64,000 nucleotides of DNA from assembly GCA_951406725.2 (NCBI GenBank), contig OX597825.1:59706001-59770000 (forward strand), in the 5' to 3' direction. Both the position numbers and the translations under genes were made by a program. The DNA is from Octopus vulgaris. Its lineage: Eukaryota. This document shows positions 8,876 through 64,000 of this stretch, piece after piece (the first letter of the stretch is position 1; the number at the start of each line of letters is the position of its first letter). The notes under the pieces were generated by a model. It saw only the letters and a list, made by a program, of their open reading frames with translations. It searched no databases and was not told the origin of the DNA.

Positions 8876-9150
8876 CTTAGCCTATTCCGCTGTATTCTAA
8901 TCCAACAATATTTTTCTCCATGGTATTTACATAAGCAACCTTTTCCCATCTTGAAATACATTCATTTATACATATTTAAATATGCAAACCTCTCATCACT
9001 TCCTGTATGGCATTCCTTCTCTATCTCTGTCTGTCTGTCTGTCTATCTCTTACTCACTTACACTCTACTTCTAGCTTGTCACAACTTCTAGTTTTGCACA
9101 TGTATATATATATATATATATACTTTATTTAAAGCAGCAGAAAATTCAAC

Positions 9151-9198
9151 AAAATCTGTTACTCTGAGTTTCTCGTTGCCGTTCATCAGACAGTTTTT
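9151..9198 (-). ncRNA. Minimal type I hammerhead ribozyme motif
   Basis: Minus strand reads aaaaactgt CTGATGA acggcaacga GAAA ctc-a-gag TA acagatttt: stem I ctgt/acag, stem II cg-gcaa-cg, quasi-palindromic stem III, GUA cleavage triplet. Confidence 0.8.
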
Positions 9199-9984
9199 GC
9201 TAGAATGGAACCGATATATCAATTCAATGCAGACTCTTACAAACGCTACACCTTTAAAAAATGGACTTGTTTGATTGGCCCTTTAGAAATAACGGTCAAT
9301 CTTCGAGCGATAAACAAAAAAAAGAGCACAAAAATATATTGTATATATATATAAAAAAATTATAAAAATTATAAAAATTATAAAATTCGAGGAAAAAACC
9401 TTACATTGAATAAAATACATATTGACGTTAATGAAGAAAATATAATTAATGCATAGAAATTAAAACTTATTATAAATATTACACTGCAATACATATTCAT
9501 ATTAAAGTGTACATATATATATCAACATACACAGAAGGATGCGTGCAAACGCCATACATATACAGACGTATAAATATAAATCTAAAATATACACACAAAT
9601 GCATGCATACATATATGTACGCAATCTATCTCGCACGCAAGTTAAAATCATCGATGTAGCGTTTCTCATTTACTGAGTAAAGCTTAAGTAAGGGGGACGT
9701 AAAGTTGTATCAGTATCAGTTAGAGATATATGTATATATATATGTATGTATATATATATATATATATATATATATATATAGTGTGTATGTGTGTGTATGT
9801 ATATGTATGTATATATAGATATATATACACATATTTGTATATACTTATATATATGTATATATATACATGAATACATGCATATATATTTATATTTATATGT
9901 ATACATATATATATATATATATATATATATATATATATATATATATATATATATATATATATATAATATATATATATATGTATA

Positions 9985-10650
9985 TGTAAAAAAATACAAA
10001 CTGGGGCAAGAACGCAAAACATTTAGAAGACGATACAAAAAACACGTACGCGACATTCGAAGCCTTCAATCCTCAGTCAAGAACCGGATCATCCTCGCAA
10101 TTTCGGCTGATTAATCTTGAGATTGCTCCGACCTGGCCAGCCCCAAAGGAAAATCTAAGCCAAGCGCATTAGATTCCTTGGAAGAAAGCCTCGAATGTAT
10201 ACAAAACAAGGACGGGAACAAATAAGAATACAAAAATAAGTAAAAATAATAATAACACGAATAAGAATACGAAAATACGTAAAAAACAATAATGATAATA
10301 ATAATAACAAAAACAGGACGTCACAGACAGGCGTATTTTCGACAGGACAGGTGAACTTGTGCTGGTGCATTGGAAAAATGCCTTGAGGTGAAGAGAGAAG
10401 AGAGGTGTGTCTAGCCTCGGCGGCTGCTGACCACGAAAAGGCAGGACAGCAGTCCAAATTTAGTCACGTGTGAGGAGAAGAGGGAGGAAAAGTGGGACAG
10501 AGGAAGAGAGAAAAAAAGGGAACAAGGAAAAAGGAGGAGGAGAAGAGAGAGAGAGAGAGAAGAGACAGATCAAAGTGGAGTGCAAAGTGTGATAGGCAGA
10601 GAAACGTAGGAGAGGGGGGGAGAGTGAGAGACAGTACCAAGTTTAAAGAT
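9985..10650. repeat. Unclassified interspersed repeat between two (TA)n tracts
   Basis: Complex GC-richer island bounded by TA runs; no coding motif recognised. Confidence 0.4.
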
Positions 10651-11264
10651 AAATGTACATATATATATATATATATATATATATATATATATATACATAC
10701 ATATATATACATACATACATATATTTATGTAGGTACGTACATATATGTTTGTATGTATGCATATATTTTATTTATTACACTATTGTATGACTGAGCGCCT
10801 TCGCGTCGATTCGATTCGATTTGTTTCGTTTCGTTTCTTCTTCTCTAAGCTGTTTTATACAGACACACACACACACATACACACATATATATATATATAT
10901 ATATATATATATATATATATATATATATATATATATATATATATATATATATATATATATATATATATATATATATATATATATATATAGATATATGATG
11001 CAAACCATAGAAAGGACCGCATTTGAGCAGGTTCTATGTTTTCAATTTATGGTACCCGCGATAGATTTGTATACAAATCAATGCATATTTATGCATATAT
11101 GTTAATATTTTAACCTGTATAACCTACACATAAACACACACACACACACACACACGCACCCCCATACATATATACAGGTCTGTTTTCTCATACGCCTCTA
11201 TTTCTCCCAATATATGTTTATATACATATATACGTAAATATATAATGCCCACCAACACACACAC

Positions 11265-60459: not shown

Positions 60460-60745
60460 ATAAAATATTAGGGAATAAATTCAAACTTACAGGGAAAACT
60501 CAGATTTAGGATTGAATCCAATTTTATAGTAAAATATTATATTATATTAAATTAGAGATAAAACCACTATTAGGCAAATCATACAATGAAAAACTTAAGC
60601 CAATACATACGATTAATTAATTTATATTATTTAAATATATATCAAAATTATTAAAAAAGATAATTAATATAACACTACGATCGTTTCATGGCTGTTCAAT
60701 TCTTAAAATTTCCGAGTTACTGTCATTCTTCAGGAGGTTTAAATA
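60460..60745 (-). mobile_element. TA-flanked element carrying a hammerhead-like motif (60671-60740)
   Basis: Minus-strand aaacctc CTGAAGA atg..(long stem II)..cat GAAA cgatcg TA gtgtt. Confidence 0.6.
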
Positions 60746-61157
60746 TTTAATATATATACGTATATATTAATTATATATACGTATATATAGACAAAAATAT
60801 ATAAATATACATACATACATACATTCATATATATATGCATCAAGGAAAACGGTGGTAAACACAGTTGGTGTTACATATATAAGCATTAAACACAGTGTGA
60901 TTCAGCCCCATGCAGCTTAAACATTCTTAGACTCATCTACAGAAACACAGCCCTTCGAGCGAGGTACCAGTGAGAAGCCTACGATTCGTTAAAGTATATA
61001 GAATCATATTTGTTTGTGTTGTGTTTTTGTGTATATATAAACATATCTATCTATCTGTCTATCTATCTATCTATCTATCTATCTATCTATCTATCTATCT
61101 ATCTATCTATCTATCTATCTATCTATATCTATCTATCTAAATATATACATATAAATA

Positions 61158-61422
61158 TATCTATACAATATGTTACATTACTCGGTAGTCAAGATAAAAC
61201 TCTGAGTTTCAGATGCCGAAGTGGAAATCCACAACACCATCTCTTCGGTAATCTGGCTAAGATAACCGAAGAGATGGTGTTGTGGATTTCCACTTCGGCA
61301 TCTGAAACTCAGAGTTTTATCTTGACTACCGAGTAATGTAACATATTGTATAGATAAATTTCCTCTATTTACATAATATTGAGATCTCTTTCTTTCTTTT
61401 GTTATCTTACCGTTTTATCAAT
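61158..61422 (+). mobile_element. Fold-back element (97-bp arms, 5-nt loop) with a hammerhead-like motif in each arm
   Basis: Arms 61158-61254 and 61260-61356 with one mismatch; plus-strand aagataa CCGAAGA gatg..catct GAAA ctc-a-gag TT ttatctt. Confidence 0.85.
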
Positions 61423-63719
61423 ACATATAAATATAGATATATATGTATGTATATCAATAAATTTATGCATTTATATACATACATTCATATATATGTGTGT
61501 GTGTGTGTGTGTGTGTGTGTGTTCGTGTATGTGTGTGTACGTATGTTTGTCTGAATGTATATCTAATAGGTATTAAATGGTATAAATTTCTGAATGTGAG
61601 GGTTGTTAATGTGTCGCTAATTAGAAGCCATTATAACTTTTAGGTTTCTCATTTGATGAAATCATTTTTTAAAGATTGTATCTCATTTGCTTTATTAGGA
61701 ACAATTACGTTGTAAAAATCATTTTTTCGAACGGTTAGGTAGATTTTCTCAAGTGTTTAATTTAAAATTCATTAAAATATAAACGATAAACAAAAGAGTA
61801 GATATCGGAAAATCAAATTCATCATTCTTACAGAATAGGCGATGAATCAACATTAGTAGATACATCTAACTGTTATTCTGGAATATATTAATCTCATACT
61901 CCAGCATGGCCTTGTCTGTGATTACCTTGTCTATGATGGCTTAAGATGGACGAATCTACCTCTGATTTAGATTCCTACAAAATTCTTCATGAATAATTTC
62001 ACTTTTTAAAGCCCACAGATGATTAAAATTCTATAGTAGTTTGATTGAAATGCAAATTAGACTGATCTAGTGCTAGTTAATCGATAACGCTCCTCTGAGT
62101 AAAAACATTTTTTTATAATCCTTGGTTGAATCTTATACTATCTTTATTCCATCTCTATTTCGATACTTTCTTTCCTTATAGTTCATGGCTGCTAGCTTTC
62201 CTCTGTTCCACAAGATTATCTTTACTGACTTACTTTATTATTATATAATTAATGATATTGTACGTAATACCTGTTAATAAAAGATAATTTTTAGTTTGAA
62301 ACATCAACTGATAGGTTAAATCCAGTTAAGTCTTTCTATTTAGATTGCTTTAAACGAATTTATTTGAGATGAATAATTTTCTGGTGTCTGCAAAACTCTG
62401 GGAAGTTGAAATTGCCTACATACAGGCACACTAATCAGTTATGATTAAAATAAAACAGCGTAAATTTATATTTAACAGTTTCACGTACACAAATGTGTTC
62501 AGACCTTCGCAGTGATAACTGCCTAGGAAGAAATATTCTTTTCATGAACGATCTTTGTAGAAATACACTAAAGGGGGCTATTTCATTCTACAGCTGAGGT
62601 TTTCATGGCTTCTATCGTATTCAGAAGTTTTTTCCATCTTTATGACAAAATCATTATAATTTCTATGTCTCTATTAAGCTGTTAGAAATAATGCAAGGAG
62701 ATATGTACAATGAAATATAGTTTATTACCATAAGTAAGGATACTTAAGCTGCAGAAGCGTGCAATTGTGAATTCGTTTGCTTTCATTACCTGTTAGAAGA
62801 AACCAGCCCTTGTATATCTGTTTCTGAAACATTGTATTCAATGGTTCTTCAAGAATTTAGTGGTGATTCATAATATTTTTACGTACAGAGAAAAAGTACA
62901 AAAGTGAGAATTTATGGAAAAGAACTAATAGGAAAAAATAAAATAAAACGTGAGAGAAAAATCAACAATACGTGTAAGAATTAGCACTTGGTAAGCATTT
63001 CTTTCTAGAAACTTTTATATCCATTTTTCAAGGACATATTGACCTAAGATATAAACGCTTCTTATAATTACAGCACTGTCAGATTTCTTTACAGAACCAA
63101 TTTTAGTTTCTGACTAGCTTCACGTCTATTTTAGCATCATTGTTAGGTGAGATCAAAGGTCAGAATCAACGTTCTGAAGTGGAATAACGTAGTTAATTCT
63201 TCTTCTTACCAATTGTCACTCTCAACTGTTCTCTTTATATTTTTTTGACAATGCTGTTCTATTCTGTAATAGCCTGGTTAAATAAATGCAGCTAAAAACT
63301 CCCTCGTTTACTGAAAAAAAACTTATATTTTTCTTTCATTGTAGACATATAAAGCAAGTGATTCTGTCATAACATTCTAGTCTAAGCAAAAGAAAATATC
63401 TCTATGTATAAATTCAACTTTGTATTAAGGGGATACAAAAATATGCGTCTATTCCGAACAGCTGCTTGGATAGCGTGTGTAGCGTATTTATGTTGTACAA
63501 GTTGTATTTCTTGAAAAGGAAGCAGTCGTATCTCATTTATATACATACACTTGCATACACACACGCCTGTGTGCAAGTATATTTGTGTATATATATATAT
63601 ATATATTTATATTTGTATACATATATATATATATGAATATATATATGTGTGTGTGTATATATATATCTGTATACATATATATATATACATATATACATAT
63701 ATATATATATATATATATA

Positions 63720-64000
63720 ATTAATCAATATAGGGTGGCAAAAAATTTGTAGAATTCTTTTGCCACCAGCGGCCTAGTAGGAAAAAATTAAATAGTCATA
63801 AACCATTTTTACGTTCAACATCACAATCAAGGAACGGCCATAATAGGCCATTCACCCACTAGAAATAACAGCCAAAAGCTTTAACCGCAAAATAACATTA
63901 ATACCGTAAACCAGGAGAAAATTGAAAACTTTTACCCTGTAATTTCTTAGACGATGCACCGTTTCATCTACCGTTTAATGGTAAACTAACCTGATTAAAT
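63720..64000 (-). mobile_element. TA-anchored element related to 42910-43140, running off the window end
   Basis: Shared aatcaatata.gggt..caaaaaatt..accagcgg..aaatagtca..ttcaaca..aaggaa..accgcaaaa blocks. Confidence 0.75.

Follow-up and report, generated by a model that had tools for sequence, protein, structure and literature searches.

What kind of mobile element leaves short, non-coding repeats between TA microsatellites, some of them folded back on themselves and some carrying hammerhead-like motifs, and is it a new one? The question is raised by a 64,000-nucleotide (nt) stretch of the Octopus vulgaris genome (assembly GCA_951406725.2, contig OX597825.1, positions 59,706,001 to 59,770,000, forward strand), referred to here as the window, where a first-pass annotation had described a new system of dense, TA-anchored elements derived from Penelope-like elements (PLEs) or resembling retrozymes. 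These short, multi-family repeats at TA microsatellites, each made up of an arm with a tail on one side and in many cases a second, inverted arm, are probably 5'-truncated insertions of hammerhead-bearing PLEs. That they behave like PLE insertions is well supported. The inverted copy, the one-sided tail, the minimal type I hammerhead and the (TA)n bias are all already published for PLEs, and the framing as a new system is not supported. The elements concerned are:

9123-9200, minus strand: solo hammerhead-bearing end
27105-27273, plus strand: fold-back of family A, second subfamily; inverted arm 27106-27149, forward arm to 27204, tail 27205-27273
42909-43385, minus strand: fold-back of family B; tail 42909-43004 (96 nt), TA tracts at both sides
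47060-47359, plus strand: solo hammerhead-like motif
47416-47688, minus strand: fold-back, distantly family B-like; tail 47416-47509 (94 nt), TA at both sides
52154-52310, no strand assigned: older fold-back; arms identical in 58 of 82 columns
60460-60745, minus strand: solo hammerhead-bearing end
61153-61420, plus strand: fold-back of family A; inverted arm 61153-61259, forward arm 61260-61361, tail 61362-61420
63719-64000, minus strand: tailed family B copy, about 70% like the copy at 43 kb; ends at the TA tract 63588-63718

A general inverted-repeat search of the window was swamped by microsatellites, and the fold-backs were found by comparing the repeat-masked window with itself. Five local inverted repeats were detected in this way (27106-27204, 43005-43385, 47510-47688, 52154-52310 and 61153-61361), against none in each of 30 local shuffles. 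The four that had been pointed out earlier, at 27.1, 43.0, 47.5 and 61.2 kb, are real and have the layout of unique end, arm and inverted arm that had been ascribed to them; the one at 52.2 kb, absent from the earlier list, is added here. Arm differs from arm by 3 substitutions at 27.1 kb, 12 at 43.0 kb, 3 at 47.5 kb, 17 at 52.2 kb and 2 at 61.2 kb, plus insertions and deletions. As had been claimed, the elements adjoin TA: TA-rich DNA lies 1-2 nt from one arm end in all five, the background being 0.003 per point. The second arm extends through a one-sided tail into TA at 27.1 kb (about 69 nt), 43.0 kb (96 nt), 47.5 kb (94 nt) and 61.2 kb (60 nt), and the statement that both ends lie at TA is partly circular, in that the tailed end was set at the tract; the tail-less end was not.

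The individual fold-backs vary in what they retain. That at 27.1 kb has (TA)14 on both sides, and it is devoid of a hammerhead core because both of its arms begin at about the predicted ribozyme cut site, the one such case. At 43 kb the tailed arm (43005-43200) lies on the minus strand and the tail-less arm, which runs to 43385, on the plus strand. The arms at 47.5 kb are 89 nt long, with 85 of 89 columns identical and no hammerhead within them, and those at 61.2 kb show 100 matches and 2 mismatches. The 52.2 kb fold-back is TA-rich at its left end and is followed by (GT)n about 25 nt past its right arm.

The grouping proposed earlier largely stands. Family A comprises the copies at 27.1 and 61.2 kb, which have a 73-nt tail in common (92%), align on through the arm (z 15.6) and have their tail-less ends at the same homologous position. 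Family B comprises those at 42.9 and 63.7 kb, aligned over about 270 nt (z 18), the latter being clipped by the end of the window so that any inverted arm would be outside view. The suggested link of the 47.5 kb copy to family B is weak (z 3.6 and 4.2), while the 9.1 kb end is locally similar to the 63.7 kb copy (z 7.7), and neither the 47.07 kb nor the 60.7 kb motif recurs within the window. Between two TA tracts at 21542-22014 lie another 473 nt with a weak hammerhead-like motif (21795, plus strand) and a palindromic helix III. To the eye its 3' end is like family B, but this 21.5-22.0 kb stretch fails z>3 and was rejected as a member.

To score the hammerheads, a type I descriptor of our own design was used, with at most one mismatch in the core, helices I and II and a palindromic helix III, and 134 candidates were ranked with it. 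The score was written after the motifs had been seen, and its p-values are optimistic. Six motifs had been reported in the first pass, and they are listed here with their cores:

9189-9183, minus strand: core CUGAUGA, intact; score 12
43220-43226: degenerate hammerhead, GUGAAGA, with GAAAC at 43231-43235 and GUA at 43244-43246; C3 missing
47071, plus strand: core CUGAAGA; score 9.5
60733-60727, minus strand: core CUGAAGA; score 11
61266-61272, plus strand: family A core CCGAAGA (U4 to C), helix I of 7 bp; score 13
63965-63961, minus strand: GAAAC of a partial hammerhead, with palindromic helix III and GUC at 63952-63950; no recognisable CUGANGA

At a score of at least 11 there are four hits (61266 plus, its inverted twin 61248 minus, 9189 minus and 60733 minus) against 0.01 per shuffle, a number reached in none of 150 shuffles; at a score of at least 9 there are five, 47071 plus being added, against 0.86 per shuffle. 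A stricter first descriptor gave its top score only to 9189 minus and 61266 plus. The supported loci are thus those at 9.2, 47.1, 60.7 and 61.3 kb, four in number, while the motifs at 43.2 and 63.9 kb, without a proper core, lie outside the top 22 of the 134 candidates and are convincing only in the GAAAC-palindrome-GUH half. These halves do correspond between the 43 and 63.7 kb copies, with both partners altered in two helix III pairs (C-G to G-C and U-G to G-U). Further candidates at 57624 plus, 62593 minus and 21795 plus, with scores of 7-8.8, are within the shuffle range and were left uncounted; the second of these (62528-62593, minus strand, score 8.4) has a one-mismatch core followed directly by an ATG that opens a 5-bp helix II. 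An Rfam scan (E<=1) showed no hammerhead model among the 150 of 245 matches listed, which are sub-threshold microRNA models, nearly all over microsatellites; a mir-2062 match (E 2.4e-5) at the centre of the 61.2 kb hairpin was judged to be chance, as expected for a perfect hairpin.

The 9.2 kb motif is a minimal type I hammerhead with a helix II of 2 bp, a GCAA loop and a palindromic helix III. A YAG (9201-9199 region) stands immediately 5' of its helix I, the predicted cut follows GUA at 9160, and 38 nt then lead to (TA)10 at 9103-9122; a second TA tract at 9342 may be the far end of this element. The motif at 60.7 kb has an ATG directly after the core, opening helix II, and reads GAAAC-GAUC-GUA up to a predicted cut after 60676, which 217 nt separate from (TA)10 at 60440-60459. 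At 61.2 kb the ATG is at 61274 and the predicted cut follows GUU at 61316; an ATG stands at or beside the start of helix II in the 43.2 kb motif also. The motif at 47.07 kb, with a helix I of about 6 bp, weak helices II and III and (TA)28 at 47360, about 260 nt downstream, is the least secure of the four, given the 0.86 hits per shuffle at its level. In most copies the hammerhead is likely to be weak or dead.

All of the motifs had been said to read toward TA. A pure (TA)6+ run does lie within 260 nt downstream at three of the four supported loci (background 0.172, p ~0.02), and TA-rich DNA within the same distance at all four (background 0.221, p ~0.002). TA is also found upstream, 63-171 nt away, at three of the four, and the window alone therefore shows a position between TA tracts better than it shows motifs pointing at TA.

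More can be said of family A, for which contigs of four sequencing runs were aligned to 61215-61440 at 80% likeness: 1849 contigs of X3 (label B), 8084 of X5 (A), 776 of X8 (D) and 471 of X10 (E). The family A tail enters (TA)n in all four runs, behind 61416 in 34 contigs of X3, 60 of X5 and 19 of X8, while X10 has 9 such contigs behind 61408 and 10 behind 61415; at the tail-less end, a loose end into TA is seen in 2 contigs of X8. Letters of the 27.1 kb subfamily recur as loose ends in contigs of other runs. At 61384 the contigs of X3 add up to a depth of about 1.08 million, compared with 12.6-14.8 in two long contigs; summed depth is no copy number, and with over-counting of up to 31-fold allowed for, we infer roughly 2,400 to 86,000 copies. 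None of the core positions 61266-61272 shows a variant at 8% or above in any run, cover in X10 being thin there, and U4C looks family-wide among contigs passing the 80% filter. Immediately ahead of GAAA, C accounts for 25-81% of depth, and it keeps the pairing with G10.1. Pattern scans of metagenome and viral contig collections gave 0 loci.

These contigs also record how the fold-backs are joined. In the 15 joints listed of 21, an inverted arm ending at 61242-61259 passes to 13 different forward starts, from 61293 to 61396, and none of the 15 goes back to an upstream position. Contigs of X3 (records 9 and 10) cross a fold-back centre at this place, as do contigs of X5 and X8 over a shorter length, and other family A junctions stand at depths of 25-406. 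No contig listed spans the whole 226-nt stretch; the 61.2 kb locus itself is therefore without independent assembly, although fold-backs of family A have it. Upstream of 61260, family A has a T-rich tract ending in CAG, then ATGGCC (or ATAGCC) and then helix I. Of the joints from 61257, letters are known for seven and not for a further three; five of the seven end 1-4 nt from the AG|ATG boundary (rough binomial p ~0.001, 5 of 14) and two enter the tract by at least 12 nt. The inverted arm at 61.2 kb in the window stops at this same place, and loose ends before 61260, in the pyrimidine tract, are seen in 32 contigs of X5 and 10 of X8. Inverted arms gather at an AG|ATG that resembles a splice acceptor and lies just 5' of the ribozyme, as would be the case had a PLE RNA been copied up to its 5' end; since short contigs and the choice of reference both favour this class of joint, the pattern is no more than a lead.

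The type I hammerhead of PLEs sits shortly upstream of the start sites of reverse transcription. Work on a PLE protein with GIY-YIG and RT (reverse transcriptase) has shown that it cuts both strands of AT-rich DNA and extends them, and that reverse transcription begins at two internal RNA sites between which the tail lies (PMC11167929). With (TA)n identical on both strands, two complementary DNAs (cDNAs) could be primed from opposite strands, one at the distal site and hence with the tail, the other at the proximal site and without it. Both would run toward the 5' end of the RNA, stop early and join head to head, giving TA-tail-arm-inverted arm-TA; a single priming would give the solo ends. 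The hammerhead would be a passenger, and the master elements that encode the protein would be sited in other parts of the genome. Such two-sided priming accounts for TA at both ends, a one-sided tail, outer ends fixed by family and a variable centre, all of which are seen; the joining of the cDNAs, and any role of the ribozyme, we infer.

The anatomy is familiar from the literature. The pseudo-long terminal repeat (pLTR), inverted pLTR and tail of PLEs have been described (PMC3846280), as have an inverted 5'-truncated copy with a 30-40 bp tail, a (TA)n bias in Naiads and a microsatellite bias in Neptune (PMC8557442), and inverted pLTRs and short 3' extensions serve as routine curation marks (PMC8969392). 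Elements with an endonuclease (Penelope/Poseidon, Neptune, Nematis and Hydra; PMC3846280, PMC8557442, PMC11167929) likewise have a tail-less, inverted, 5'-truncated copy beside a tailed one, a hammerhead in sense near the 3' end with an ATG at helix II (as in an anole PLE, PMC11167929), and an AT-rich or (TA)n target in which the target-site duplication is masked by the microsatellite. They differ in that the window copies have no open reading frame (ORF) and tails of 60-96 rather than 30-40; assignment to a clade requires a reverse transcriptase (RT). In the window a hammerhead in sense near the 3' end is found at the four loci above shuffles, family B retaining its 3' half only and the 27.1 and 47.5 kb copies being truncated below the core.

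Metazoan PLE hammerheads (PMC4209133) are also minimal type I; their helix III is short and palindromic, which suits them to acting as dimers, and their activity in vitro is low. They are mostly solo motifs, from truncated PLEs, with opposite-strand pairs 100-700 bp apart. Both at 9.2 kb and in family A a YAG directly precedes helix I, as does an intron end in Drosophila virilis (PMC4209133). Family A departs from these in its U4 to C change and in an extra nucleotide at the 3' side of helix II; U4C, not seen reported for PLE hammerheads in the extracts of the PLE literature, is a weak but viable natural variant in a viroid (PMC3088659). Naiads share the (TA)n preference, the inverted and tandem copies and the tail, and two octopus Naiad families with a (TA)n preference are given in the supplement of PMC8557442, but Naiads have an N-terminal GIY-YIG and are without a canonical hammerhead, so that the hammerheads at four loci argue against a Naiad identity for those loci; eight short motifs of the window elements were not found in that supplement. 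A giant squid genome has 235 hammerheads (PMC6962438). No paper devoted to short fold-back PLE stubs, to twin priming by PLEs or to cephalopod PLE hammerheads was found among the papers listed by a search that left out Repbase, Dfam, subscription papers and repeat libraries, and Repbase, Dfam or published libraries may already contain these families. Taken with the (TA)n end and the fold-backs of family A recurring in independent runs, this published anatomy supports the PLE-type origin, the several families and the TA targeting that the first-pass annotation had put forward.

Several points weigh against a PLE origin. The tails, at 60-96 nt, exceed the published 30-40 bp, and the putative link to PLEs is drawn from insertion anatomy, a master with RT and GIY-YIG being outside the evidence in the window. 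Two of the six motifs first reported fail in the core, and in monomer folding only the 61.2 kb motif stands out (z -2.3), the other six folded giving z -1.8 to +1.3; poor folding as a monomer fits dimer-type minimal hammerheads with weak helices, yet it is no support for the other motifs. Family A is the one family traced outside the window. As had been said earlier, no PLE RT or GIY-YIG ORF is visible: a Pfam scan of 150 of the 268 non-repeat ORFs of the window (at least 52 codons, the 118 shortest being excluded) gave neither. The frames behind the hammerhead ATGs stop within 8-60 codons; the ATG at 43226, after the 43 kb motif, opens 54 codons for which no relative was found, none being among 33 candidates. 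A phmmer match of this frame to a 6119-residue repeat protein was rejected, having no significant single stretch. At one family A stop, A is replaced by G at 61325, giving TGG, in 24-99% of depth. Nowhere in the window do these ends flank an ORF as a direct pair; truncated copies would be expected to lack such a pair, and its absence is therefore not counted against the mechanism.

The Pfam scan has its own blind spot. It missed a decayed mariner-like transposase (25.6-27.05 kb), so decayed PLE pieces could escape it too. The element concerned, at 25560-27052 on the minus strand, is a DNA transposon of about 1.5 kb that we take to be of the mariner-like family in spite of its having no Pfam match. 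Its terminal inverted repeats are short and imperfect and its transposase-like frames are broken, and it is flanked by (TA)13 at 25523 and by the AC/TA tract that also hosts the 27.1 kb element. The sole RT that Pfam found is in ORF 539-2284 and belongs to a different long interspersed element, with restriction-like endonuclease motifs.

A variant of the PLE reading would make family A, and perhaps B, a self-contained, non-autonomous miniature PLE, comparable to a short interspersed nuclear element (SINE), with its own fixed 5' end near AG|ATG and copied in trans by a PLE protein, instead of a remnant of full-length elements. In X3 and X5 the summed depth over the tail is close to that over the hammerhead region, so that short hammerhead-arm-tail units are common; five of the seven lettered joints end 1-4 nt from AG|ATG, the U4C core is invariant at the 8% level in four runs, the frame downstream is closed, and putatively non-autonomous PLEs are on record (PMC8557442). 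Against this, some copies extend into the upstream pyrimidine tract (the 32 X5 and 10 X8 contigs and the two longer joints), short contigs and the reference favour joints near AG|ATG, and an equal pile-up would be expected from an ordinary PLE messenger RNA copied to its 5' end; the variant is rather unlikely. The same caution applies to its fuller form, an improbable proposal, by which family A would be a non-autonomous miniature PLE of thousands of copies, primed internally and run off to the 5' end of a spliced PLE-type RNA, with two-sided priming at (TA)n giving near-perfect hairpins of 50-200 bp that carry a fixed U4C hammerhead.

Readings outside the PLEs fare much worse. Non-LTR (non-long-terminal-repeat) retrozymes, in which tandem hammerhead repeats are processed to circular RNAs and re-inserted, also have type I hammerheads, small size, no ORF and a PLE connection, those of animals having been proposed to derive from PLE pLTRs (10.64898/2026.07.22.740005). 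Their defining feature, however, is a tandem of units, 150-450 bp long and set head to tail (PMC7229834), every one of which has an active ribozyme, whereas the copies here are solo or head to head, their pairs are inverted, most cores are imperfect, the window yielded no tandem that carries hammerheads, and among the 15 joints listed of 21 not one returns upstream; the retrozyme-like label of the first pass is dropped, and the idea is very improbable. Scarcely more probable are miniature inverted-repeat transposable elements (MITEs) or fold-back DNA transposons targeting TA, with hammerhead-like words by chance. The elements are indeed short, non-coding and palindromic, with both ends at TA, but such transposons have terminal inverted repeats at both ends and a fixed interior, whereas here one arm lies 60-96 nt inside the end, behind a tail outside the inverted repeat, the centre differs between copies with variable junctions, the 63.7 kb copy is solo and un-inverted as far as the window extends, and hammerhead motifs exceed shuffles. 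That the inversions are artefacts of assembly or library, or repair fold-backs at fragile (TA)n unrelated to transposition, is brought to mind by the difficulty of assembling palindromes and (TA)n tracts, the lack of a listed contig over the full 226 nt and library types that are not recorded. It too is highly unlikely: the arms carry independent substitutions and indels (2 to 17 mismatches), their ends are defined by family and not random, and contigs of X3, and shorter ones of X5 and X8, cross the centre.

The window has 34% GC and abundant microsatellites (78 (TA)6+ runs and 127 tandem-repeat rows). The stretch 61620-63550 is present in runs under five organism labels, with at least half of its words in 8 runs, and is therefore genomic DNA common to a group of related species; none of the runs listed as carrying it is an RNA run. 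The listed elements make up 3.6% of the window and PLEs 6.83% of a published O. vulgaris genome with 190 PLE families (PMC13282606), so that the density is ordinary.

Other repeats accompany them. A non-LTR retrotransposon occupies 1-2724 (plus strand); its ORF 539-2284 has an RT (PF00078, E 7e-23) and zf-RVT, with a PD..D restriction-like endonuclease motif at the end and frameshifts near 591 and 2284, and its 3' end enters (AAT)24 at 2654-2724. Elements of the Dong/R4 clade, to which it presumably belongs, target TAA repeats. A SINE-like family has at least 7 copies (6875-7115, 14963-15511, 32831-32967, 34619-34725, 53191-53268 and 55538-55754, two being in tandem at 15.1-15.5 kb), and a second repeat family lies at 6092-6276, 28820-29141, 31636-31737 and 45311-45634. 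A low-complexity tract at 12009-12698 has 71% GC, units of 6, 9 and 15 nt and several open frames (poly-Ala/Pro or Gly/Ser). There are local direct duplications at 11265-11420 and 13805-13960 (93%) and at 46363-46534 and 46822-47006 (76%), an exact direct pair of 36 nt at 43689-43724 and 46286-46321, and an inverted pair of 89 nt at 11638-11726 and 17254-17342 (99%).

What the locus offers is known PLE anatomy at high density, of use mainly for annotation, since stubs of this kind can readily be taken for MITEs, pre-microRNAs or unknown repeats. PMC8557442 and PMC11167929 name as open questions the way in which PLEs produce their tails and inverted pLTRs and whether hammerhead cleavage takes place in vivo. 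The find would gain in importance should the junctions follow this pattern across the whole genome, as head-to-head insertions in their thousands, with stop points that can be mapped, would then test two-sided priming and the use of the ribozyme directly, by sequence alone. If the miniature-PLE reading of family A were true, the genome would amount to an extensive natural archive of the two RT start sites and of the 5' ends of RNAs, whether at the splice acceptor and ATG or, as at 27.1 kb, at the ribozyme cut site, and would hold a dispersed putative source of double-stranded RNA.

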